Virus record (IMG/VR): IMGVR_UViG_3300037506_000247
Coordinates: 1-60,606 of that record
Direction: 5' to 3' (one strand)
Source of the DNA: a virus
Lineage: Duplodnaviria > Caudoviricetes
Length of the DNA stretch: 60,606 nt
How positions within the stretch are numbered: the stretch's first letter is position 1; each line of letters starts with the position of its first letter. The notes under the pieces are model-generated. The model made no database searches, was not told where the DNA came from, and worked only from the letters and a program-made list of their open reading frames with translations. This document shows, piece by piece, positions 5,469-49,109 of the stretch. The position numbers and the translations under genes are program-made.

Positions 5469-6202
5469 CACCTGTCCTTTCGCGTTGGCGGGCGCATGGG
5501 CAGATCGATCTTGACCTTGCCCGCGCGCCGCAATTTGCTCCTGGCGCTCGCGACTTTTCGCGTCGATTCGGCAAACGACGGTCCCTCGGTCGTGTTGTAC
5601 ACACACGCGCGGAAATTCCCCTTCTCGTCATACCATCCGTCCTTTCCCCACGCTCCCTGGCCATCCGAGTACTTGCTGAAAACATCCGGATACAAACCGA
5701 TGCACAGCTGCTGCGCCTCGTCGGCCGTGGCAGCGTTGATGCCGAACTCCTCGCGAACGCAGCGCTTGACGAACTGATCCCACAAGATAGTCGTGATCTC
5801 CAACTTGCCCGGCGGCGGAAACCGAAAGCCGTCATCGACGACCAGGCGCGCCTTCCCGCCGGACTTCTTGCTCGCCTTGGCGTTCTCGCGGATGCACTCG
5901 GCGATGAACTGTGACCACGTCCTTGGCCGCTTGAGGTGGTTGTGTTTGGATTTCTCCCAGTTGCGGCGCAGCTCGCTCACGAGGGCGGCAAACCGTCTGG
6001 AGGTCTCGGCGATTCCCTTCGGTTGCTCGACTCTCGCCCAACCCTGCTTCGTCCGCGCTTCCTTGCTAAAGACGATGGTGATTGACTCCAACTCCTCGTT
6101 GAACGGCCAGCCCATGAACTCAGCCAACTTGCGCGGGTCTTGGTGCATGTCGCGCAGGGTCACGCGCACGGCGACTGGTTGATCCTTTTCGATGACCGGC
6201 AT
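5468..6202 (-). CDS. Hypothetical protein
   Basis: Translationally coupled at both ends. Start MPVIE. Confidence 0.7.
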   Translation of the reverse strand: MPVIEKDQPVAVRVTLRDMHQDPRKLAEFMGWPFNEELESITIVFSKEARTKQGWARVEQPKGIAETSRRFAALVSELRRNWEKSKHNHLKRPRTWSQFIAECIRENAKASKKSGGKARLVVDDGFRFPPPGKLEITTILWDQFVKRCVREEFGINAATADEAQQLCIGLYPDVFSKYSDGQGAWGKDGWYDEKGNFRACVYNTTEGPSFAESTRKVASARSKLRRAGKVKIDLPMRPPTRKDR

Positions 6203-36187: not shown

Positions 36188-36613
36188 TCATGTGCTGATC
36201 CGCGGCTTGGTTTTGACGCGCAACTCCAGTCCGACGCTGCCGCCGGCCGCCAGCACGATCTTGTACTCGAGCAGCCGCCACTCGCCGGGGTCAGCCAAGT
36301 AAAGCGCGTCCACGTCGTGGCGGAAGTTGTAGCCGTAAAGGTCCTCGGCCCAGCCGGCGGTTTGCAGCGCGTCGAAGATGTTGGCCGAGGCTGTCAACGT
36401 CGGTGCGGGCGTCACCTCCACGCCCGCCTCCGCATCGCGGTCAGTGCCGATGTCATACACCCTGCATGTGATCGAGGAAACGTCCGCCTGCTTGACGACC
36501 GGCCCCTCGCCTTGAACCACCTCGCTGCCGGTCCCGGCCAGGGCCGTCACCCGGCGCAGGTGGGACACCGGTATGTCCTCGAAGGTTTCGGCGTAGAGGA
36601 TTGGAGCACTCAT
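36188..36613 (-). CDS. Putative structural protein
   Basis: GGAGG RBS, start MSAPIL. ATGA overlap with the upstream fibre gene. Confidence 0.65.
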   Translation of the reverse strand: MSAPILYAETFEDIPVSHLRRVTALAGTGSEVVQGEGPVVKQADVSSITCRVYDIGTDRDAEAGVEVTPAPTLTASANIFDALQTAGWAEDLYGYNFRHDVDALYLADPGEWRLLEYKIVLAAGGSVGLELRVKTKPRIST

Positions 36614-39600
36614 CCCGCGCCTCCCCCGGAAAATGCGGTGCCGTCGCTCGACGACTCGGCCCCGATGCCACCCGTCGAAGGCTGCGCGAAGGCCGCGCCC
36701 AAGAACCCGGAGGCGACCACCGCGCCTGCTTGTCCGCCGCCAAAGAACACCGCCCCGGCCGGAGCGCTTCCGCCGGGAGTCGTCGCCGAAATCGTCGCCG
36801 CCGTCACGACCGGCACGGAAGCAACAACCACCGTTGGGCCGAGCAGCATCGTCAAAACCGGAGCGGCCGCGGCCGCCGAAGTTGCGGCGAACGCCTGCTC
36901 GGCCGCGAACGCCAGCGCCGGGATCGGCGCGGCGACCGAGGAAGACGCCGAAGACGACGACTCCGTGGACAGCGCCGGAGACGGCGAAGCAACCGGCACG
37001 GACCCCGATGCCGGAAGTGGAGAAGATGACCCCGACGCCTCCGGTTGAGTCGCCAACGCGAATGACGACGCCAAACCGGCTTGGTGAGCCAAGTCGAGTG
37101 TTGCTGATGCAACCGACGCCACGACCACGACCGGAGTCAGCGAAGCGGTTGCGACCCAAGACGGTGCGGACGCCGACACAGCGGCTGTGACCGCGCTTTG
37201 CTCGATCGTCAAAAGCTGTGTCGGGGCCGCCGCCGATGATACTGCGCCCGTGTGCGTCGACGGGTTGGCCAGTTCTTGATCCGCGGCCGCCGTTGATGAC
37301 GCCGATCCGACCGGCTCCGCCGCAACCCCCAGGAACTGGGAAACCGCGGCGGCCAGGGCTTGCGCGGCAACCGGCGACCCCTGATGCGCCAACTCCGCGC
37401 TCGGAGCGGCAATCGACGCTGCGGCCTGGATGATTGAAGGTTCGCCCGTCAGCGCAGTTGCTGCCGGCGACACCGACGAGGCGGCGGTCACAACTCCCAC
37501 TTCCTCGACCCTGCCGGCTTGCGCCACCGGCACCGACAAAACGACCGAAGTCGGGTCCGGCAAGAGGGTCAAGGTCTGAGTCGATGCGGCGGCTCCGGAG
37601 ACCGAAGCGGCCGCCCCAGGCTCGGACACGCCCGCGGTCGCCGGCGCGGCAACCGAATGGGTGGAAACGACGACCGTGGCTTCCTGCGCCAGCGCTTGAT
37701 CTGAGGTAGTGGTCGAAGATGCTGCGACGGCGTGGGCCGGTTCGGCGATGAGCGCCTGGGTTGGCCCCGCGACCGAGGACGTCGAAGCGACCGGATCGGT
37801 GATGACGCCGATGGTCGGCTCCGGAACGGAAGACGCTGCCAGGACGGGGTCGGACAACAGCGCCAGCAAGTTGGTCGGAACAGTCACGCCTCCGACCATG
37901 GCCAGCGCGTTCGCCGCGACCGTCAACAGGGCTGTGGCGGCAACGACCGAAGAGACGGCGCTGACCGGGTTCGGAGTTTCCGTGGCGCCTGCCGGCGTAT
38001 AGTACACGATCACGCAGCCGCACTCGTAGAGGAACTTGTCAACCCGGCCCGTGCCGGACGCCATGCCGATGCCGGCTGCGTTCGATGGGTAGCTGGCCGA
38101 CGTGACCACATTCGAGTAGAAGGCCGACGTTGAGGACAGCACGACCGCGGTCTCGGTGCCGTTGAGCATGATCTTCGGCGTGCCGAGCGTGTCCTCCGGC
38201 TCCAGCGCCAGGATGATCGAGGCCCACGGATCGGTCGCCGCCGTGGTTGCCGTCAACGTGCCGGTCGCGGTCGCCGTCGTCTGAATCTGAAAATACATCC
38301 CCATCGAACCGTCCGGCGTGCCGGCGCTCGACTGGTAGTTGTTCTGCGTGCCGCCCGCCGTGTCCTCGAAAGCCACGGTGTAGCCGGTGATCGCGCTGTA
38401 ATTGTCGTCGTCGCCGCGCCCGGTGCAGAACAGCACCGCGCAGCCGTCAACCGACGGCGTGATGCCTGAGCCTGTCTGCGTGCCGGTACCGGTCGTCTCC
38501 GAGCCGAGCGTGTTCACCGGGTCGCCGGACGCTTTGACTCCCCTGAACTCTTTGATCCCGCCGACGATGGTTCCGCCGGACGTGTGCCCGACCACCAGAT
38601 TGGGAGTGTTCCCGGCGTAGCGGAAGTACCACACCGACAATCGGCTGCCGGTGCCGCCGCCGTTGAATTGCGCGATCTGCGTCCAGTCCGTCAGCGTGTG
38701 GGCCGCGTTGTCCGCCGAGTGGATGACCGCGATCCACAGACTGGGGTTTTGCGGAGACGACGGCGCATTCAGCGTGATGTCGCCGCTGGCAGCGCTCGCC
38801 TCGGTCCCACTGTTGCCGGCCGTGATGTTCGTCACCGAGCTGCGCTTGGCCCAGAGCCAGCCGACATGACCAACGTAGGTCTTGCCGGTCAGGACCGGCG
38901 TCGTCTCGCTGGCGGTCTGGAGCGTGTAGTTCTGCTGCACGTCGGTCGCGGCGGCGTGCTGCTTGTAGTTCGTCTCGCTGATCGGCACTTCGTTGACAGC
39001 GCCGGTGCCGCCCGTCGTGTCGAAGTTGCCGGCGTTGGTCTCGTCCGGCTTGGCCGCGGTAACTCCGCAGCCGGTCGTGGTGTCGCCCGCGAAGATGTCG
39101 GCGAGGTCCGCGCCGTTGTCGATGGCCAGCTCGTCGGAGTAGGAGATGAAGTTGTCGCCGGCGGCGCTGTTCATAGTCATGCGGAACGAGTCAGAGCCCG
39201 TGTTGGTCAGCGTGCCGTTGCTGCTGATCGTGATCTCCAGCACTCCGTTTAAGTAGACCCTGATCTCGAAGTTCGTAGTGCTGGTGATGACGTAACTCAA
39301 GCCGATTCTATACCACGTATCAACCGAGAGGACCGTGTTGCCAACCACAGCCGGAGCACCAACGCCGTTGGCCTGGAGCTTGCCGTCTGTTCTAAGATGC
39401 ATCAGCCAGACGTTGGCCAACGACGTATTTTGCGAGGCGGCGATGATTGCATCGGCGGCAGGCGACACGCTGGCGAACCTGCGCCAAAAACTTATGCGCC
39501 TGCCTGCGTCGGCCATAACATCGTTCTTGATGAGAACGGCGTTCGCCGCTGGGCTGCTGGTGTCGTGCTTCCACGACCGCGCCTGGCCGACGCGCGTGAT

Positions 39601-39693
39601 CGTGGATTCCATGGTCACCGTGCCGGACGTGGACGTGAACGGCTCGAAGCCGCCCGTCTGCGAGGCGTTGCAGGCGTAGACCAGGTCGGCCAT
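36610..39693 (-). CDS. Large fibre/adhesin-like virion protein (LamG/ConA-like N-terminus, Ala/Ser/Thr repeat C-terminus)
   Basis: LSVDTWYRI..VYLNGVL pattern and roughly 22-aa Ala/Ser/Pro repeats. Confidence 0.7.
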   Translation of the reverse strand: MADLVYACNASQTGGFEPFTSTSGTVTMESTITRVGQARSWKHDTSSPAANAVLIKNDVMADAGRRISFWRRFASVSPAADAIIAASQNTSLANVWLMHLRTDGKLQANGVGAPAVVGNTVLSVDTWYRIGLSYVITSTTNFEIRVYLNGVLEITISSNGTLTNTGSDSFRMTMNSAAGDNFISYSDELAIDNGADLADIFAGDTTTGCGVTAAKPDETNAGNFDTTGGTGAVNEVPISETNYKQHAAATDVQQNYTLQTASETTPVLTGKTYVGHVGWLWAKRSSVTNITAGNSGTEASAASGDITLNAPSSPQNPSLWIAVIHSADNAAHTLTDWTQIAQFNGGGTGSRLSVWYFRYAGNTPNLVVGHTSGGTIVGGIKEFRGVKASGDPVNTLGSETTGTGTQTGSGITPSVDGCAVLFCTGRGDDDNYSAITGYTVAFEDTAGGTQNNYQSSAGTPDGSMGMYFQIQTTATATGTLTATTAATDPWASIILALEPEDTLGTPKIMLNGTETAVVLSSTSAFYSNVVTSASYPSNAAGIGMASGTGRVDKFLYECGCVIVYYTPAGATETPNPVSAVSSVVAATALLTVAANALAMVGGVTVPTNLLALLSDPVLAASSVPEPTIGVITDPVASTSSVAGPTQALIAEPAHAVAASSTTTSDQALAQEATVVVSTHSVAAPATAGVSEPGAAASVSGAAASTQTLTLLPDPTSVVLSVPVAQAGRVEEVGVVTAASSVSPAATALTGEPSIIQAAASIAAPSAELAHQGSPVAAQALAAAVSQFLGVAAEPVGSASSTAAADQELANPSTHTGAVSSAAAPTQLLTIEQSAVTAAVSASAPSWVATASLTPVVVVASVASATLDLAHQAGLASSFALATQPEASGSSSPLPASGSVPVASPSPALSTESSSSASSSVAAPIPALAFAAEQAFAATSAAAAAPVLTMLLGPTVVVASVPVVTAATISATTPGGSAPAGAVFFGGGQAGAVVASGFLGAAFAQPSTGGIGAESSSDGTAFSGGGAG

Positions 39694-40670: not shown

Positions 40671-41102
40671 TCACGTGATCTGCACGATGCCTTCCGCGTT
40701 CCACTGAATCGTGAAGTTGCTGCCGCCGGGATTGATATTGCCGCTGAATTCGATCCAGCACAACGGAAAGCTGCCGGCGTCGTTGGTGATGAACTCATGA
40801 ATGCCGGCCCCTTGCATCTGCCTGGTGCCGTTGCCGAGCGCGGTCCAGCTCACGTCGTCGGCGTCGAACTCAGCGCGGTCGTTGGCGTCGTCCGTGTTGA
40901 CCGCCTCGTTGGCGAGGTTGACGCGCGCGTAATTGGTGCCGTCCATCTCGTCGAGCGTGTACGAACCGGTGTTGTCGGTGTCCACGTCGGTGTCAAACGT
41001 GGTGTTGGTCATCAAGAGGAACAAGCGCATGTCGTCCGTGTTCAAATCCATGTCGCCGGACATCATGCGGCTCTTGGCAATGTTCTTGACGTTCGACGCC
41101 AT
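40671..41102 (-). CDS. Virion structural protein (fibre-associated)
   Basis: DLNTDDMRLFLL..Y..AEFDADDVSW..NFTIQW..GI pattern, typical of small proteins preceding such fibres. Confidence 0.65.
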   Translation of the reverse strand: MASNVKNIAKSRMMSGDMDLNTDDMRLFLLMTNTTFDTDVDTDNTGSYTLDEMDGTNYARVNLANEAVNTDDANDRAEFDADDVSWTALGNGTRQMQGAGIHEFITNDAGSFPLCWIEFSGNINPGGSNFTIQWNAEGIVQIT

Positions 41103-41326
41103 CTCGATCCTCCCTCGGAAAGCCGCCGGCCCCGGTTCCCGCCTGGACCGGCGGCTCAGCCAACATCTCTTCTCATTTGCGGATCAACCTTGACCTTCGG
41201 ACCGGTCGATCCTTCCCGCTCTCCTGCTGCGCCGAACCGCCGCCGGAATGCGCTTCCGAGAAACCGGCGATCCGACTGCCCACGCTGACCCAAGCGACCA
41301 GCCGGCGATCCGCCCGCCCCTGCGTC

Positions 41327-41698
41327 TCAAACCGGTTTCTTGCCGCTGCCGTCCCACGGCTTCAAATGGCCGGCGGCGAGCATGACACGCGCGAAGTCGC
41401 GGCCGTCCGAGAGGCTGATTTCCGCGAGCCAGCGCCCGTACTTGTCTCCGCCGCCAGCCTCCCCGGATTTGTGTGATTGCACCACAACCGGTGACCCAGG
41501 CGGGGCCAACTCGACTGCCGCTGCCAAGGCCGCGAAACCGCGCCGCTTCTCCTCCGCGTCCTTCGAGTGGATTTCCGGCGCGTTGACTCCGAAAATGCGA
41601 ACGCGCTGAAAGGTCGTCACCCGGAAACCGAGGTCCACGGCAAGGTCCACCGTGTCGCCGTCAACCCAATTCACAATCTTGCAGCGATATCGGTACAA
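41327..41698 (-). CDS. Thermonuclease (SNase-like)
   Basis: VDGDTVDLAVDLGF, RIFGVNAPE, DKYGRWLA. Confidence 0.9.
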   Translation of the reverse strand: MYRYRCKIVNWVDGDTVDLAVDLGFRVTTFQRVRIFGVNAPEIHSKDAEEKRRGFAALAAAVELAPPGSPVVVQSHKSGEAGGGDKYGRWLAEISLSDGRDFARVMLAAGHLKPWDGSGKKPV

Positions 41699-41701
41699 TG
41701 A

Positions 41702-41983
41702 TCACTCCAGGAACTTTTCCGCGATGCCGGTGAACAGGTAGCCGCTGTCCATCCGCACATCATACTTGAAGAACACCCAACTTTCCGGATCCGCAATGGC
41801 GACGCCCTCGGCCACGTAATCCGGGACCATCAGCGGGTGAACCCGCCGCACGATTCCCCACTCACCGTTGCAACCGAGCGCGGCGACGGGCCATTCATCG
41901 GGCTTGAGACCGACCACCCGGACGCGCTGCGCAGGCCGATGACGCGCTTGCAGAAGCATGAGCCACCCCGCCGGGATCGTCAT
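41702..41983 (-). CDS. Hypothetical protein
   Basis: ATGA overlap. Confidence 0.55.
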   Translation of the reverse strand: MTIPAGWLMLLQARHRPAQRVRVVGLKPDEWPVAALGCNGEWGIVRRVHPLMVPDYVAEGVAIADPESWVFFKYDVRMDSGYLFTGIAEKFLE

Positions 41984-42342
41984 TTTGGCGGCTGAAGGTC
42001 GATCAAGAAGCCGCTCGTCTTCGTGACGTTCGTGTTGATCGGCACCGGAGTGTTAGGCTGCCTGAGCGCCAGCCACGCGGCGAGCGCGGAAGGTATTGCA
42101 GCGGCCGCCACGGCAATGCCGATCGCGCCAAGAGCGCCGATGCCGCTTGCCGTCTGCGTCACGGTCTTCGCGCCGGACTCATCTAGCAACAAGCTGACCG
42201 GCACGCCCCAGTCCCGCGCCAACTTATAGCGGCGCGCCGCCAGAACGGCTTTCTGATCGCGCAGCCAGTTCGCCGAGAGAACCGACTGCGGCGGGACCAA
42301 TTCATCAACCGTTTGGGGCAGGCTGACTTGTTGCTCCGCCAC
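41980..42342 (-). CDS. Membrane protein
   Basis: GAGGAG RBS, GTG start, one hydrophobic segment. Confidence 0.6.
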   Translation of the reverse strand: MAEQQVSLPQTVDELVPPQSVLSANWLRDQKAVLAARRYKLARDWGVPVSLLLDESGAKTVTQTASGIGALGAIGIAVAAAAIPSALAAWLALRQPNTPVPINTNVTKTSGFLIDLQPPK

Positions 42343-42667
42343 TGGTAGACTCCTCAACGATTTGCACCTTGGCTGGCTCCACCGCCTTCGGCGCGCGTGC
42401 TTCGATGTCGGAACGGATCAACCGGATGAGCTGCACGAGCAGTATCGTCTGGTCGCCCGCCCCGGCCTTGAGCGCCGCCGCCAGGTCGGGGTCCAGCTTC
42501 ACCGGGATCGTGATTGGAGGCGCTGGCATGCCAATCAACCCCCTTTCGAGGTTGGAGTTCTCTTCCCAGCCTTGCAGAACCTTGGCCCGGCCCTCGAACG
42601 CCAGCTTGTCGCTGTTGTCCTCAAGCATCTTGGCCAAGGCCGCAAGCTCCACGATGTTCAAGGCCAT
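42305..42667 (-). CDS. Hypothetical protein
   Basis: Operon position. Confidence 0.6.
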   Translation of the reverse strand: MALNIVELAALAKMLEDNSDKLAFEGRAKVLQGWEENSNLERGLIGMPAPPITIPVKLDPDLAAALKAGAGDQTILLVQLIRLIRSDIEARAPKAVEPAKVQIVEESTSGGATSQPAPNG

Positions 42668-42668
42668 G

Positions 42669-42932
42669 TTACTTGTCCGGCTCGGGCACGATGCGAACCG
42701 TCCGCAGGCCCATCGCGTACTGGGCGTCCGGGTTGGCCTTCGCTTCCTTCATCGCCGCCGCCTCCACGAACGACGGCTCGGTGTATTCGCGCAACATCAC
42801 GCGGTCGATGATGTTGAGGAACGTTGCCGCGCCCTGCGACATCGTTTGCGTCACCGCCGCTGCCGAGTCGCCGCGCAGCGCAAACGATTTCGCGAGCTGG
42901 CCAGAAATCACGTCGTCAAGATTCACTGCCAT
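42669..42932 (-). CDS. Hypothetical protein
   Basis: GGGAG RBS, start MAVNLDD. Confidence 0.6.
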   Translation of the reverse strand: MAVNLDDVISGQLAKSFALRGDSAAAVTQTMSQGAATFLNIIDRVMLREYTEPSFVEAAAMKEAKANPDAQYAMGLRTVRIVPEPDK

Positions 42933-42988
42933 GGAACTGACTCCCAGAAAAAGAGAGACTGAAAAACCGGCCACGCGGCCGGCACGAT

Positions 42989-43663
42989 TCATTTGACTGG
43001 CAACAGGAAAATCTTCAATGGTTCGTCCCTGCCGAACTGCACCCGGCGGAGCAACGCGCCGGACGTGTCATACAACTCGGCCGTGAACTTTTGCGCCCGC
43101 AGCGCGGCGATCTCGGCTTGCAGCGCCGCAACATCTGCGTCCTTGCCGTCTTTGCCGTTGGCCCCGTCCTTGCCGTCGCGGCCGGGCTTGCCGTCAAGCC
43201 CCGGCTTCCCGTCCTTGCCGTCGGCTCCGTCGCGGCCGTCCTTGCCGTTGACGACCTTGATTTTGGCAAAGCCGGCGTCGATCATCTTCTGGATCGCCGC
43301 CATGTCTGCGTCCTTGCCGTCGCGCCCGTCTTTGCCTGGCTGGCCGTCCTTGCCGGCCGGACCCGGCGATGCCTTGTGCTTCGCCATCTCGTCGATCTTG
43401 GCCTGCACTTCGGCCAGCTTCTTCAGAGCGTTTTCCAGCTGCGGCTCGATCTTCTGCTCAAGCCGCTTCGCCGGAATGATCGGGAACACGTTGGGCGCGA
43501 GTTTCCTCAAGCAGTCGGCGCACGGCTGTCCCTTCGCGCCGCTGACGATTGGCGGTCCACCCTGGACCGGCGAGCGCGCCGGGCGTCAGGTCGGACACGG
43601 CTGTTGAGCCTGAATCGGCCACGTGAGGATGAACGAGAGCAACGCGAGTGCAAAACGGCTCAT
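42989..43663 (-). CDS. Exported collagen-like protein with in-frame UGA (CxxU); candidate selenoprotein
   Basis: GGAGG RBS and ATGA overlap at 43663. Reads MSRFALALLSFILTWPIQAQQPCPT*RPARSP..CADCLRKLAP.. then GKD/GRD Gly-X-Y repeats. TGA at 43588-43586. Confidence 0.7.
43542..43589 (-). promoter_or_regulatory. Bacterial SECIS-like stem-loop
   Basis: Upper stem CGGTCCA/TGGACCG with a GGG loop 23 nt after UGA. Lower stem CTGACG/CGTCAG includes the UGA. Confidence 0.5.
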
Positions 43664-44685
43664 CTTCCACCTCCAATGATCGAAACCCGCGACGACGACC
43701 CCTGGCCCGTAGCCTCAACCGCTCCGGTGGGCAGGCTGGCCTTGGGGTCGATCACGTCCTCTCGAAAGCTGACCCGGCGATTGATCCCGTTTGGCGAGAT
43801 GCTGGTCGGCTCGAACGGATGGAATGACAGAATCGTGTCATCGCCGCGGATCACCGAAGCATAACCAGGGGATTTGCCGGCGTGCTGGTGACACTTCGCG
43901 CACGCGACGACGTTGCCGGCATAGAGCGGCGGAATGGCAGCGTCGTCGGACTGGGTCGTAGCCACGATCCGCGACGGCTTGAAAGCCGGCCAAATAGTTT
44001 TGTCGGTCGTCTCAGGCAGCAACCAGGCAGTGGCTTTGAGACGGTCAACCCCCAACAAACTCAACTTTTCACCTGGCTGCGTAGGCAGCTCCCAGGTTCG
44101 CTTGATAGCGCCCTTAGGCAGGTCCTCGGCAGATGCGTAAGGCCGATAGGCGATGCCGTCATCCCATTTGCCATCGCGCTTTTCGCGCAGGCGCAGCTCG
44201 AACGGCCACTCCTGGCCGTCATGTTTGCGTATCAGCATGTCGGCGAAAATCGTTCCGTCCGGGTACTCCCAGCGCCAAATCGGTAGCGAGCCGGCCCCGC
44301 GCATCTCAATCATTCCCTTCCAGACCTTGAGCGGGCCGGGCAGGTGGACGGCCGTCGCGTTCCGCCAGTGCTTGCGGTCGGTTCCCTGAAGGCCGCCAGG
44401 ACGGCGCCAGAGCCGCAACAGATTGACGTTGTGGTCGTTGGCCACGAGAGCGTAGTCGGCGCTGCTGAGCAGATACGTCGGCCGCAGCGCGCCGTCCCTG
44501 GCCACATGCTGGAACGCCGGCTTGCAGTCGTAGAACCTCATCCCGGCCGGGAACTCAACCCCGGTCCATTTCCACAGCGATTCTTCGTGGGCCTGCCTGT
44601 CGGCCGAAACCCATTGGGCCGATCCAACGGCGCTTGAGGCCAGCAACAAAACCAGCGGCAGAAAGTGCTTCGACGCCTTGAGCAT
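43660..44685 (-). CDS. Exported protein with CxxCH heme-binding motif
   Basis: Signal-peptide-like N-terminus, YPDGTIF, CAKCH at 43902-43888. Confidence 0.65.
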   Translation of the reverse strand: MLKASKHFLPLVLLLASSAVGSAQWVSADRQAHEESLWKWTGVEFPAGMRFYDCKPAFQHVARDGALRPTYLLSSADYALVANDHNVNLLRLWRRPGGLQGTDRKHWRNATAVHLPGPLKVWKGMIEMRGAGSLPIWRWEYPDGTIFADMLIRKHDGQEWPFELRLREKRDGKWDDGIAYRPYASAEDLPKGAIKRTWELPTQPGEKLSLLGVDRLKATAWLLPETTDKTIWPAFKPSRIVATTQSDDAAIPPLYAGNVVACAKCHQHAGKSPGYASVIRGDDTILSFHPFEPTSISPNGINRRVSFREDVIDPKASLPTGAVEATGQGSSSRVSIIGGGR

Positions 44686-44756
44686 GTCCTCACCTCAACC
44701 ACGCGGTCATTTGAGATCAAGCGCGATCACGTCCATCGTCGCTCCGTGACTCACGA

Positions 44757-45212
44757 TCATCTTAGTTCCTTCGGCAACGGCTCGCGGACGGCCGCGCTCG
44801 TGTTCTTAGCGACCCACTCCATGAACAGCTCAATCCTGCCGAGCCTGGCGAGGTAGTCGCCGTGCCTCTTGTCGCTCCTGTCGCGGCTCAGCCTGCGGTC
44901 TTCATCGTAGCGAGCCAGCAGCTCGCGGCGCTCAGCAGCAGCCTCCACGCGCGCTTCCTTCAGCTCCAACCGCAGCCCGTCCAGCTCCGAGGCCGTGCGG
45001 TCAAGCACCCACCAGATCACGCCGATGAACGTCAGCGCCAAGACCGCCAACATGCCCAGCTGCGACCAAATCTTCGCGGCGATCCCGCCTGGCGTCAACG
45101 GGAAGTCGGCTTCGACCCTCAGCGTCCGCCCGGACTTCGGGTCCTTCGTCTCGGCAGACAGCATCTGCCCCGGAAGACTCCCTGGCTTCGACTGTTGCGG
45201 ATCGCCGTTCAC
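44757..45212 (-). CDS. Single-pass membrane protein with coiled coil (holin/spanin-like position)
   Basis: GTGA overlap. LGMLAVLALTFIGVIWWVL. Confidence 0.55.
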   Translation of the reverse strand: MNGDPQQSKPGSLPGQMLSAETKDPKSGRTLRVEADFPLTPGGIAAKIWSQLGMLAVLALTFIGVIWWVLDRTASELDGLRLELKEARVEAAAERRELLARYDEDRRLSRDRSDKRHGDYLARLGRIELFMEWVAKNTSAAVREPLPKELR

Positions 45213-45694
45213 AACTTCTCCCTGGATCGCTCGTCGATCTGTTGGCTCACCCTGGCCACGGCTTGCTCTGCCCACCGGTGATGGTCGGCAACCGCAGACC
45301 CTTGTTGCCTGAGCAACTCCACCTGCTCTTTGCCGAACGCCTTGATCTCTTCCAGGTGGACCATCTCTGTCCTCTGCAAGCCGAGGTGCTCGAAGCTGGT
45401 CGCGGCGATGTCCTTGATGTTCATCTCGATCCCGGTCAAGCTCAGCGTTTGCTTGTCGATTTGGGCTTTCGACGAGGTGACTGCCTCGGTCTGCTCCGGA
45501 ATGGCATTGCGAAGCACCTGAAGCAACTCCAGGTGAGAAGCGATGATTGGGGTGGCCACGTTGTCCCTCGTCCAGCGGACCACCTGCCAGACCCCCCAGC
45601 CGAACCCAAGCAGGATGACGGCTAGGACGCCGTTGTCCCAAGCCTTGGACCAGAAATCCATCCCAGGCGACTGAGCGAATAGTCCCCACATCAT
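45209..45694 (-). CDS. Single-pass membrane protein (holin-like)
   Basis: GVLAVILLGFGWGVW followed by an amphipathic helix. Confidence 0.55.
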   Translation of the reverse strand: MMWGLFAQSPGMDFWSKAWDNGVLAVILLGFGWGVWQVVRWTRDNVATPIIASHLELLQVLRNAIPEQTEAVTSSKAQIDKQTLSLTGIEMNIKDIAATSFEHLGLQRTEMVHLEEIKAFGKEQVELLRQQGSAVADHHRWAEQAVARVSQQIDERSREKL

Positions 45695-46083
45695 TGCCTC
45701 TCTCGTTCTGCGAAAGCGCTTCGTTTCAAGTCGCCGTGTTCAACCGGCACTCGCAACTGACTCTCGCGCTGAATCACCAGGCCGCCGACAAACAGCGACT
45801 GAAGCATGCTCGCCCCGGCCCGCAACTCGTCCTTGATCGTCTGGCCAACCTCGGCCGCGAACTGCCGCGCCGGTCCTTCGAGAAACTTGCTGCCGTAAAG
45901 CGACGGCCCCCAGCGCACGCCCAAGCCCGACGGCCGGGCCTCGCCCGCGTGCTTGGGCGTCATCTCGTGCAAGGCCAGCGCGTGCGCGGCGTTGTAGCCG
46001 ACCGCGACCGAGCCGGTCTCCTCGGCGATCCGCCGCTTGATCGCGTCGAGCTTGCGCACCAGCTTCAAGTGATCGACTTTCAT
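45691..46083 (-). CDS. Neck/tail completion protein (HK97 gp10-like)
   Basis: VGYNAAHALALHE, KFLEGPA, SQLRVPVEHGDLKRSA. Confidence 0.75.
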   Translation of the reverse strand: MKVDHLKLVRKLDAIKRRIAEETGSVAVGYNAAHALALHEMTPKHAGEARPSGLGVRWGPSLYGSKFLEGPARQFAAEVGQTIKDELRAGASMLQSLFVGGLVIQRESQLRVPVEHGDLKRSAFAERERQ

Positions 46084-47900: not shown

Positions 47901-49109
47901 TCAACTCGTGGTTCCGTGAACGATGGCGCTGTTGGTGCTGTACTCGGCCAACATCTGCGGCACCTGGATCGCCCACACCTTGAAGTTGTGCCGCATGCCG
48001 CCCATCGAATCCCACTGAAGGACCGTCGGCGCTTGACCGTCGATGGCTCGCCCGGCCTTGGACCAATCGACCAGGATGATGACGAAGCTGCCGCTGAGAC
48101 GCGGCAGCACCTTGGCCGACTTGATGTTGTCCATCTTCTTCACGCGGTCGGCCAGGGTCAGCGCGGGACTGGCGGCCCAGTTCGAGCCGTTCGTGAAGGC
48201 ATAATCCTGGACCAGGAATTCGTTCCAGTCGCGCGAGAAGTAACAGTCGAATGGCCCATAGAAAGCATTGCCGTTCAAAGTCTGGATCATGTCGGCGATG
48301 TCGGCAATCGTCGCCTGCGGGTTGGAGCCGGTCGGCACGGTCACGTTGGTCTTGGTGGACCGATACGTGAAGTTGGTCATGCCGTAGACGGTCGAAGTGC
48401 CCTGGTGCGCATGCGAGCCGGCCGATTGCGTACCGTAGGTCGGCCCGGTGACGGTGCCGATGGTCGTGTCTTCGATGGTTTCCGAGACGCGCTGGGTCAT
48501 CGCTTCGGCGGTCAACGAATCCACCGGCTCCGAGCTATTGCCGCTGATCGCCATGAAGCGGTCGGAGAAATGAAAGTCGGCATGCGTGCAGAGCAACGGG
48601 GTAGCGCGGCTCAGGAACAGGGGCTGATCGTGCCGGCCCTGGGCCATCAGGTCGAGGTCCACCACGGCCTCGCCGGGGTCGCTCATGGCCTGATACTCCA
48701 GGTATATCCGGCCGTAAGCGTCGAAGCCGCCGTACGAGTTGGCGCTGCGCAGATCCTCCCAGGCGACTAGCGGCTGGCGCGACGCCTTGACGACTGCCTT
48801 GTCGATCTCGGCCCATTGCTCCGGGCGGAGCGTGGCGGCGTTGAGCGTCCAGACCGGCACGTCGCGCCGACCCTGGTTGAGCAGGTCCATGATCCGGTAG
48901 CTGCGCCGGATGGGAGTCCTGACGCCCTTCTCGCGCGTCCACTGTCCGGTGTTGAGCAGCACGCGCTGGTGCCCGTCGCGGCCGATGAACGGCCGACGCA
49001 CGTCGCGGAAGGACGAGCTCAGGATGCGGGTGTTCGCCGAAAGGCCGCCCTCGCGGACCATCGGTCCGCTGTTGAGCCTCGGATCGCCGACGTTCTGATC
49101 GACCAACAT
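47901..49109 (-). CDS. Major capsid protein (HK97 fold, Linocin-M18-like)
   Basis: LRPEQWAEIDKAV..LVAWEDL, TPL..HADF, FYGPF, FKVWAIQVP. Confidence 0.85.
   Translation of the reverse strand: MLVDQNVGDPRLNSGPMVREGGLSANTRILSSSFRDVRRPFIGRDGHQRVLLNTGQWTREKGVRTPIRRSYRIMDLLNQGRRDVPVWTLNAATLRPEQWAEIDKAVVKASRQPLVAWEDLRSANSYGGFDAYGRIYLEYQAMSDPGEAVVDLDLMAQGRHDQPLFLSRATPLLCTHADFHFSDRFMAISGNSSEPVDSLTAEAMTQRVSETIEDTTIGTVTGPTYGTQSAGSHAHQGTSTVYGMTNFTYRSTKTNVTVPTGSNPQATIADIADMIQTLNGNAFYGPFDCYFSRDWNEFLVQDYAFTNGSNWAASPALTLADRVKKMDNIKSAKVLPRLSGSFVIILVDWSKAGRAIDGQAPTVLQWDSMGGMRHNFKVWAIQVPQMLAEYSTNSAIVHGTTS

Follow-up and report, generated by a model that had tools for sequence, protein, structure and literature searches.

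Positions 42,989 to 43,663 of the IMG/VR virus record IMGVR_UViG_3300037506_000247 raise a simple question: is an in-frame TGA the end of a short gene, or is it read as an amino acid? On the minus strand, a 25-codon open reading frame (ORF) with an export signal runs into a TGA, and the same frame then continues into a collagen-like gene, here called the stalk gene. A hairpin lies just past the TGA, and an earlier note on this DNA had proposed a phage-encoded selenoprotein. The window, meaning the whole stretch of DNA that was analysed, has 60,606 bases and is a single, linear virus record, about 82% complete, with 60-68% G+C. Our analysis leans slightly towards a plain stop. The TGA would be a true terminator, preceded by a relic or leader ORF and followed by a stalk gene that is either separately started or broken. 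This reading rests on five points: TGA is the usual terminator of this phage, the region around the TGA is not conserved, export is not a feature of the stalk family, one family member is a stand-alone stalk, and the combination of frame and hairpin is at chance level. Selenocysteine is not the best explanation of the locus, nor is it refuted; we consider it unlikely.

A portal protein, a capsid-like structural protein, a family A DNA polymerase and a primase-polymerase are encoded in the record, which is therefore a tailed phage. A rough gene map was made from the phage's own codon usage. It holds 77 genes, tightly packed and almost all on the minus strand. The start codon is ATG in 61 of the 77, and an AGGAG-like site lies 6-9 nt upstream of most. 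TGA is the stop of 60 of the 77 mapped genes and of 13 of the 15 confident ones. An alternative genetic code with TGA as a sense codon is ruled out by these 60 genes, which include the stalk gene with its own end.

The short ORF and the TGA comprise the following elements.

43670-43674, minus strand: GGAGG ribosome-binding site with a 6-nt spacer to ATG 43663, matching the usual AGGAG-type sites of the phage
43589-43663, minus strand: 25-codon ORF, signal-peptide-like and then QQPCPT (translation MSRFALALLSFILTWPIQAQQPCPT)
43586-43588, minus strand: in-frame TGA at codon 26, next base C, read directly and identical in the run X1 contig

The ATG (43663-43661) overlaps the TGA (43662-43660) of an upstream 341-codon ORF in the form ATGA. 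The strong start described in the earlier note, with GGAGG and the ATGA overlap, was confirmed on the minus strand, and the signal-peptide-like segment followed by QQPCPT-TGA was found as described, with the TGA at 43588-43586 as codon 26. The 25-codon product is laid out as a signal peptide, with MSR as the n-region, FALALLSFILTW as the h-region and PIQA as the c-region. It agrees with the Sec-pathway pattern of a basic n-region, an h-region of 7-15 residues and small residues at -3 and -1. Such starts are rare in this phage: 6 of 899 ATG-started open frames pass a crude home-made rule, which was used without a dedicated predictor. The frame is open for 42 codons upstream of the TGA, including the ATG with its GGAGG, and for 198 codons downstream, to TGA 42991-42989. 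The downstream part holds CADC and 18 Gly-X-Y triplets, in agreement with the roughly 200 open codons reported before.

The layout of ORF, TGA and in-frame gene is by itself not beyond chance in this phage. The nearest upstream in-frame stop is TGA in 60 of 76 genes, and a start-bearing ORF of at least 20 codons ends there in 25 of these 60. C also follows the TGA in 14 of the 60 real TGA terminators. An exact DNA search with the 32 bases 5' of the TGA hit 0 other viral records. In another assembly, made by Logan from run X1, a 16,094-b contig (depth ~11) had 0 differences from the record over 41000-46000; run X1 is probably the record's own source sample, and a comparison of contigs is unable to show rare alleles. 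In run X2, no difference was listed at the TGA, and coverage of that exact place was not shown. A 'QPC' repeat was discarded: in the DNA it is a direct repeat of 9 nt, and 321 bases hold three such repeats, no more than chance would give.

Two paired elements lie at or past the TGA.

43553-43569, minus strand: apical hairpin with a 7-bp stem (43569-43563/43559-43553) and a GGG loop that begins 23 nt past the UGA (inverted repeat I1)
43543-43590, minus strand: lower stem of CUGACG (43590-43585) and CGUCAG (43548-43543), enclosing the UGA in the 81-nt fold (inverted repeat I2)

Folding recovered both the 7-bp stem with its G-rich loop 23 nt after the UGA and the 6-bp lower stem that the earlier note had drawn. 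When 59 nt from the UGA onward were folded, the 7-bp/GGG hairpin was dominant, and the minimum free energy structure made up 59% of the ensemble. The 6-bp stem that includes the UGA was present in the 81-nt fold. The energy was ordinary: dinucleotide shuffles folded at least as well in 150 of 200 cases for 81 nt and in 22 of 200 for 59 nt. Constraints for bacterial selenocysteine insertion sequences (bSECIS) were taken from the legend of Figure 2 in PMC13188914, and a stricter version added the loop pattern that the available part of that paper reports for most elements. The candidate agrees with the published constraints, and so do 292 of the 1752 TGA trinucleotides and 5 of the 60 real terminators. 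Among the TGAs that also pass the strict version, 8 have open frames on both sides and an upstream start. Codon scores are positive on both sides in three of these 8: the candidate itself and two others that only shadow real genes on the opposite strand. The strict test is also passed by TGA 5628-5630 (minus strand), in frame upstream of the primase-polymerase gene. The frame upstream of it scores -0.71 bits/codon and is clearly non-coding; this hairpin match is due to chance and serves as a negative control. By these counts, an open frame combined with such a hairpin should turn up about once in a phage as large as this one. The SECIS-like hairpin of the earlier note holds up as a fit to the strict pattern and not as a fold more stable than its shuffles. 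Rfam returned sub-threshold matches only, P10 (E 0.052) and RAGATH-28 (E 9.1).

The segment between the TGA and the annotated stalk gene was examined for coding signal.

43511-43585, minus strand: 25 open codons past the TGA, Pro/Gly/Arg-rich, holding CADC and free of ATG, GTG and TTG; codon score +0.10

The codon score around the TGA does not decide coding status. The score is +0.05 bits/codon over the 25 codons that precede the TGA and +0.06 to +0.10 over the 25-31 codons that follow it; genes read in frame average 0.34, with 0.01 at the 5th percentile, and off-frame reading reaches about -0.10 at the 95th percentile. The values past the TGA are those of the low tail of real genes. Base composition at the first and second codon positions (GC1/GC2) is 0.76/0.72 in this stretch versus 0.625/0.49 in genes, and the stretch has 75% G+C at all three codon positions. 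The CPT-TGA motif stands 8 residues into a Pro/Gly/Arg-rich stretch with no recognisable redox or thioredoxin-like fold, and Collagen is the only Pfam match.

The stalk gene and its parts are listed below.

42989-43510, minus strand: stalk gene as annotated, from TTG 43510 (173 aa, JGI call P0122) or GTG 43489 (166 aa, Logan call P0002)
43310-43363, minus strand: Gly-X-Y run 1, 6 triplets (residues 101-118, read-through numbering)
43139-43246, minus strand: Gly-X-Y run 2, 12 triplets (residues 140-175; Pfam PF01391)
42992-43141, minus strand: C-terminal module of helix and beta-hairpin, common to the stalk family (alignment A1, family search, trimer prediction)

The match to Pfam Collagen PF01391 has an E value of 8.2e-09, and the Gly-X-Y pattern is uninterrupted in both runs. 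Three differences from the record were found within the stalk gene in run X2, which comes from another study. All three are synonymous third-position changes, a purifying-type variation which argues that the stalk frame is under selection. The monomer model (mean predicted local distance difference test score, pLDDT, 56, too low for a fold search) consists of helix, collagen, helix, collagen, helix and beta-hairpin (H114-131, E135-140, E146-152). A homotrimer is predicted for the C-terminal module. When its 50 residues were modelled in three copies, the interaction prediction score from aligned errors (ipSAE) was 0.72, against 0.00 for the best of 3 controls, with at least 87% contact agreement between runs and pLDDT of at least 84. 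In the calibration, which was made on two copies and not three, 20 of the 30 solved pairs attained the ipSAE mark, as did 1 of the 23 single chains.

A whole-protein search yielded 1596 hits and was swamped by collagen; the non-collagen parts were common to four. A profile of the C-terminal 50 residues retrieved six clusters among 5.8 billion proteins. P0003 (134 aa) has no head and begins at a coiled coil near residue 73. P0004, P0123 and P0008 carry a Trypsin_2 head (E 2.8e-11 to 3.6e-14), and P0124 and P0125 carry another head of ~130 aa with no Pfam match. Judged by their sequences, the stalk and its C-terminal trimer module appear to constitute a small modular family known from metagenome proteins only. 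These data agree with a trimeric fibre built in segments and encoded by a gene that is able to stand by itself. No signal peptide was seen by eye in any of the six true stalk homologs (P0003, P0004, P0123, P0008, P0124 and P0125). The conserved core of the family starts near residue 73 (read-through numbering), downstream of both annotated starts. The stalk gene lies between the capsid-like gene (47901-49109) and the gene of a 1027-aa Laminin_G_3 protein (36610-39693), and this position in the structural gene block is its sole link to the virion.

Upstream of the core, conservation was absent. Residues 27-72 bear no likeness to any of the six stalk homologs: the best score was -1.0 bits, and 153 of 200 shuffles scored as high. 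With residues 1-98 as a phmmer query, the only hit among 1.84 billion representatives was the stalk's own P0002, aligned to residues 59-98. Across these representatives, 63 viral loci and 80 metagenome loci, residues 1-58 have no homolog at all and hence none with Cys or selenocysteine aligned to the UGA. With the N- and C-terminal parts as tblastn queries, the best match in the 63 viral loci had an E value of 0.011 (27% over 51 residues in L052) and was not convincing, and the 80 metagenome loci gave only a 15-residue match (E 0.21). The C-terminal module profile A1 found nothing in the viral contigs, species genome contigs or isolated phages searched. An 'AC-x-x-[KR]-L' junction motif, considered as a link between the post-TGA segment and the stalk family, had no statistical support and was dropped. 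No RNA sequencing runs were listed as containing the sequence.

The ORF that overlaps the short ORF's start encodes a protein here called the head.

43660-44685, minus strand: head gene, 341 aa, with an N-terminal signal peptide, a beta-rich fold and an invariant CxxCH; its stop overlaps the short-ORF start

Eight relatives of the head protein were found. P0127-P0130 (330-345 aa, 54-61% identical) stand alone and end at the same ..IGGxR as the window head. In P0131 (462 aa) and P0132 (501 aa), the head continues into a Pro-rich linker, a coiled coil, a collagen stalk and a different C-terminal end. Signal peptides were recognised by eye in all seven head-family proteins; C262, C265 and H266 are invariant, and CxxCH is present in 7/7. 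The fused, exported relatives suggest that the collagen stalks of the head family work outside the cytoplasm. A likeness of the post-TGA segment to the linkers of P0131 and P0132 (PPII/PPIV) was judged marginal and rejected: 44-96 of 1000 shuffles were as good, and the best alignments fell on Gly/Pro-rich stretches.

With a plain stop, the locus would be expressed as follows. The TGA at 43588-43586 would be read as stop. The 25-codon ORF is probably translated, with its good ATG, its GGAGG and its coupling to the head-gene stop, and may be a remnant or copy of a head-family export signal, without a link to the stalk. In that case the stalk would be made separately, as a protein of 166-173 aa that starts at TTG 43510 or GTG 43489, the weak internal codons chosen by two annotation pipelines. 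Its fibre would be trimeric, with a coiled coil, 6 + 12 Gly-X-Y triplets split by a helix, and a C-terminal helix and beta-hairpin that sets the trimer. As a sub-variant, one former pre-protein may have been cut by a nonsense change, after which the stalk would be made poorly or no longer be exported. Termination at the TGA, the choice of stalk start and the relic origin of the short ORF are what we infer from this arrangement.

Several observations weigh against a plain stop. The codon score past the TGA exceeds the off-frame 95th percentile. TTG 43510 has no Shine-Dalgarno site, and the GAGG of GTG 43489 lies 15 nt upstream; starts as weak as these occur in 6 of the 77 genes, and no start signal in the region is better than that of the short ORF. 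A gene-free stretch of 75-96 nt would be left, which is unusual for a tightly packed operon. A Cys three codons ahead of the upstream stop is found in 3 of 76 genes. The candidate matches the strict loop pattern, which 41 of the 1752 TGAs pass. A collagen stalk is part of the same exported chain in 2 of the 6 head homolog clusters. Since the stalks of the head family are exported, a stalk split from its head would need an export signal of its own, and the 25-codon ORF looks exactly like one. Its signal peptide shares 9 of 21 ungapped identities with that of P0131, more than most pairs within the family. This value was reached by 54 of 20,000 full shuffles and by 473 of 20,000 shuffles that preserved the n/h/c layout (p about 0.02).

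The chief alternative is that the UGA encodes selenocysteine. One pre-protein would be made from ATG 43663, with UGA 26 read by host SelB and selenocysteine tRNA under the guidance of the hairpin 17-36 nt downstream. A single pre-protein is suggested by the strong start of the short ORF, the weak starts of the stalk, the strict hairpin fit, the CxxU motif, the exported head with its collagen-fused relatives, and the likeness of the signal peptides; the open frame with weakly positive codon scores on both sides of the UGA is in keeping with it. If there is one pre-protein, the coincidence of hairpin and CxxU favours recoding over a random nonsense change. The hairpin fits every bSECIS constraint, including the commonest loop pattern as given in the accessible part of PMC13188914, and is dominant once the ribosome sits on the UGA. 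CxxU is among the motifs listed for Cys-to-selenocysteine conversions in the section of PMC1794560 available to us. A lead to a suitable host comes from the head, whose nearest Atlas cluster is commonest in Planctomycetota; this lead is weak. Four of five planctomycetes named in the portion of PMC4807772 at hand carry full gene sets for selenocysteine insertion. Nevertheless, we hold this reading improbable. The same section of PMC1794560 states that Cys homologs exist for most selenoprotein families, whereas residues 1-58 here have no homolog, with Cys or with selenocysteine. The hairpin is no more stable than its shuffles, and TGA 5630 passes the same strict test by chance. The record contains no tRNA genes and no selB, selA or selD, which bears out the statement of the earlier note that the phage has no sel genes. 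The six stalk homologs lack signal peptides, TGA is the normal stop in 60 of 77 genes, and the motif stands outside a thioredoxin-like fold. No phage selenoprotein was found in the literature searched. The words 'phage' and 'virus' occur 0 times in the available text of a 2026 review of the prokaryotic selenoproteome (PMC13188914), and the viral selenoproteins mentioned in the accessible part of a recoding review (PMC8310308) are those of poxviruses only. The lack of a precedent makes the prior for selenocysteine low, and all the probabilities given here depend strongly on that prior. Should selenocysteine nonetheless be inserted, which we doubt, cleavage would leave an exported trimeric stalk with CPT-U at its N-terminal tip and CADC 22 residues on, and only the 25-residue peptide would be made in the absence of selenium. 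It is likewise doubtful, though conceivable given relatives that fuse head and stalk, that such a stalk works outside the cytoplasm with the neighbouring exported CxxCH head; the extra Cys of the stand-alone heads, described below, could then be its attachment point.

The remaining explanations were considered far less probable. A leaky UGA-C might let a few ribosomes insert Trp (or Cys/Arg), giving mostly the 25-residue peptide and a minor exported form of signal peptide and stalk. The arguments from frame and start are those given for selenocysteine, a stable hairpin lies downstream, and UGA-C is a weak terminator in E. coli. The A1 protein of phage Q-beta is a product of UGA read-through, and the two cases are alike in having a UGA between a short product and a longer in-frame extension in a phage. 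They differ in that the short product here has only 7 residues beyond its signal peptide, and the extension amounts to a whole gene whose homologs stand alone. Near-cognate read-through is nevertheless very improbable: most of the stalk protein would still have to come from a separate start, and UGA-C is not a special context, since 14 of the 60 real terminators have it too. Only a little more credible is a short ORF that is a gene in its own right, encoding a small exported pre-peptide (e.g. a secreted signal or membrane-active peptide) unrelated to the stalk. Phage arbitrium pre-peptides offer a comparison, and the good start, the rare signal-peptide-like sequence and the usual stop at its end would suit such a gene. 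However, the 12-residue h-region is too short for a membrane anchor, the ORF sits in a late structural operon, and Pfam and PHROGs searches of the neighbours revealed no receptor-like gene. That the ORF resembles the signal peptide of the head family speaks for a relic and against a dedicated gene. An assembly or sequencing error that hides a sense codon is the least probable of all. Depth was only ~11 and contigs were compared, but the IMG/VR record and the 16,094-b Logan contig are identical over 5 kb, and neither run has a listed variant at 43586-43588.

The plain stop therefore remains the reading that we favour, and the locus can be set beside known systems. Bacterial selenoprotein genes with a SECIS inside the ORF, of the E. 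coli fdhF type as treated in the part of PMC13188914 consulted, resemble it in the in-frame UGA, the 3-nt loop with G first, the 7-bp upper stem, the 23-nt spacing and the CxxU-type motif. In contrast to them, this is a phage gene without Cys or selenocysteine homologs, neither flank is conserved, and a low-complexity N-terminal tip takes the place of a redox fold. Glutathione peroxidase selenoproteins of poxviruses (fowlpox and molluscum contagiosum) show a virus borrowing the host's selenocysteine machinery, and the fowlpox SECIS lies within the coding sequence, according to the accessible part of PMC8310308. As described there, these are eukaryotic viruses with a SECIS of the eukaryotic type and a well-known family with many homologs. 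The collagen-like trimeric fibres of phages (PF01391; PHROG 366, tail fiber; PHROG 1806, collagen-like minor tail) share with the stalk the Gly-X-Y repeats with coiled coils beside them; they too end in a small trimerising module and are encoded in the structural gene block. The PHROG matches cover the collagen repeats only, whereas the C-terminal module of the window stalk occurs in six protein clusters only.

With a true stop, the locus would be a routine case for annotation: a gene for a collagen-like fibre, preceded by a relic or leader ORF. The lesson would be that a GC-rich phage yields an in-frame TGA with a consensus-fitting hairpin about once per genome by chance. If selenocysteine were inserted, bacterial viruses would have their first selenoprotein, phages could tap the recoding machinery of their hosts, and the expression of an exported phage protein would be tied to selenium supply. 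The analysis also uncovered a previously undescribed module, in which exported CxxCH heads and peptidase heads are mounted on, or encoded beside, interchangeable collagen stalks.

For the head itself, no Pfam or PHROG match and 0 PDB sequence hits were obtained. The head model has a pLDDT of 72 and a predicted template modelling score (pTM) of 0.74, with CxxCH in a low-confidence loop, and Foldseek returned nothing at E <=0.001. With a wider structural aligner, 5 of the top 7 rows were cytochrome c'-beta / P460 proteins at Z 3.3-4.6, below the tool's reliable level. These proteins are likewise exported and beta-sheet rich with a single CxxCH, and 105-119 residues were aligned at 15-22% identity. 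The head differs in being about twice as long, in lacking any Pfam or PDB sequence match, and in the low-confidence loop that holds its CxxCH. The head and the capsid-like gene as queries had no relatives in viral contigs, nor did the head alignment A4, and the head query found nothing in genome contigs, plasmids, isolated phages or the collected loci. The capsid-like protein is 27-28% identical to those of two Brevundimonas phages. An extra Cys in the motif FY.C.PAF (near residue 54) was present in 4 of 5 stand-alone heads and replaced by Leu in 2/2 collagen-fused forms. On sequence grounds, this Cys could be a disulfide (or selenylsulfide) attachment site for a separate stalk.

Other observations were made along the record. 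An extended ribosome-binding motif, CAGGAGCAAC(CC), recurs directly before many ATG starts on both strands (11568, 13249, 15764, 16122, 20913-side 18607, 47522 and others). Upstream of the head, two small proteins (44757-45661, minus strand) each have a hydrophobic segment and then a long charged helix, with no Pfam or PHROG match. Downstream of the stalk, a staphylococcal-nuclease-like protein (PF00565, E 2.5e-05; 41327-41698, minus strand) is encoded among small genes of unassigned function. In the gene that directly follows the stalk (minus strand), an alternative ATG at 42992 overlaps the stalk stop as ATGA. Started there, the product would begin like a signal peptide, and the frame is among the 6 of 899 ATG frames flagged for this. 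Over the interval 42932-42992, the gene map preferred ATG 42932, with GGAG upstream, to ATG 42992 as the start of this gene.

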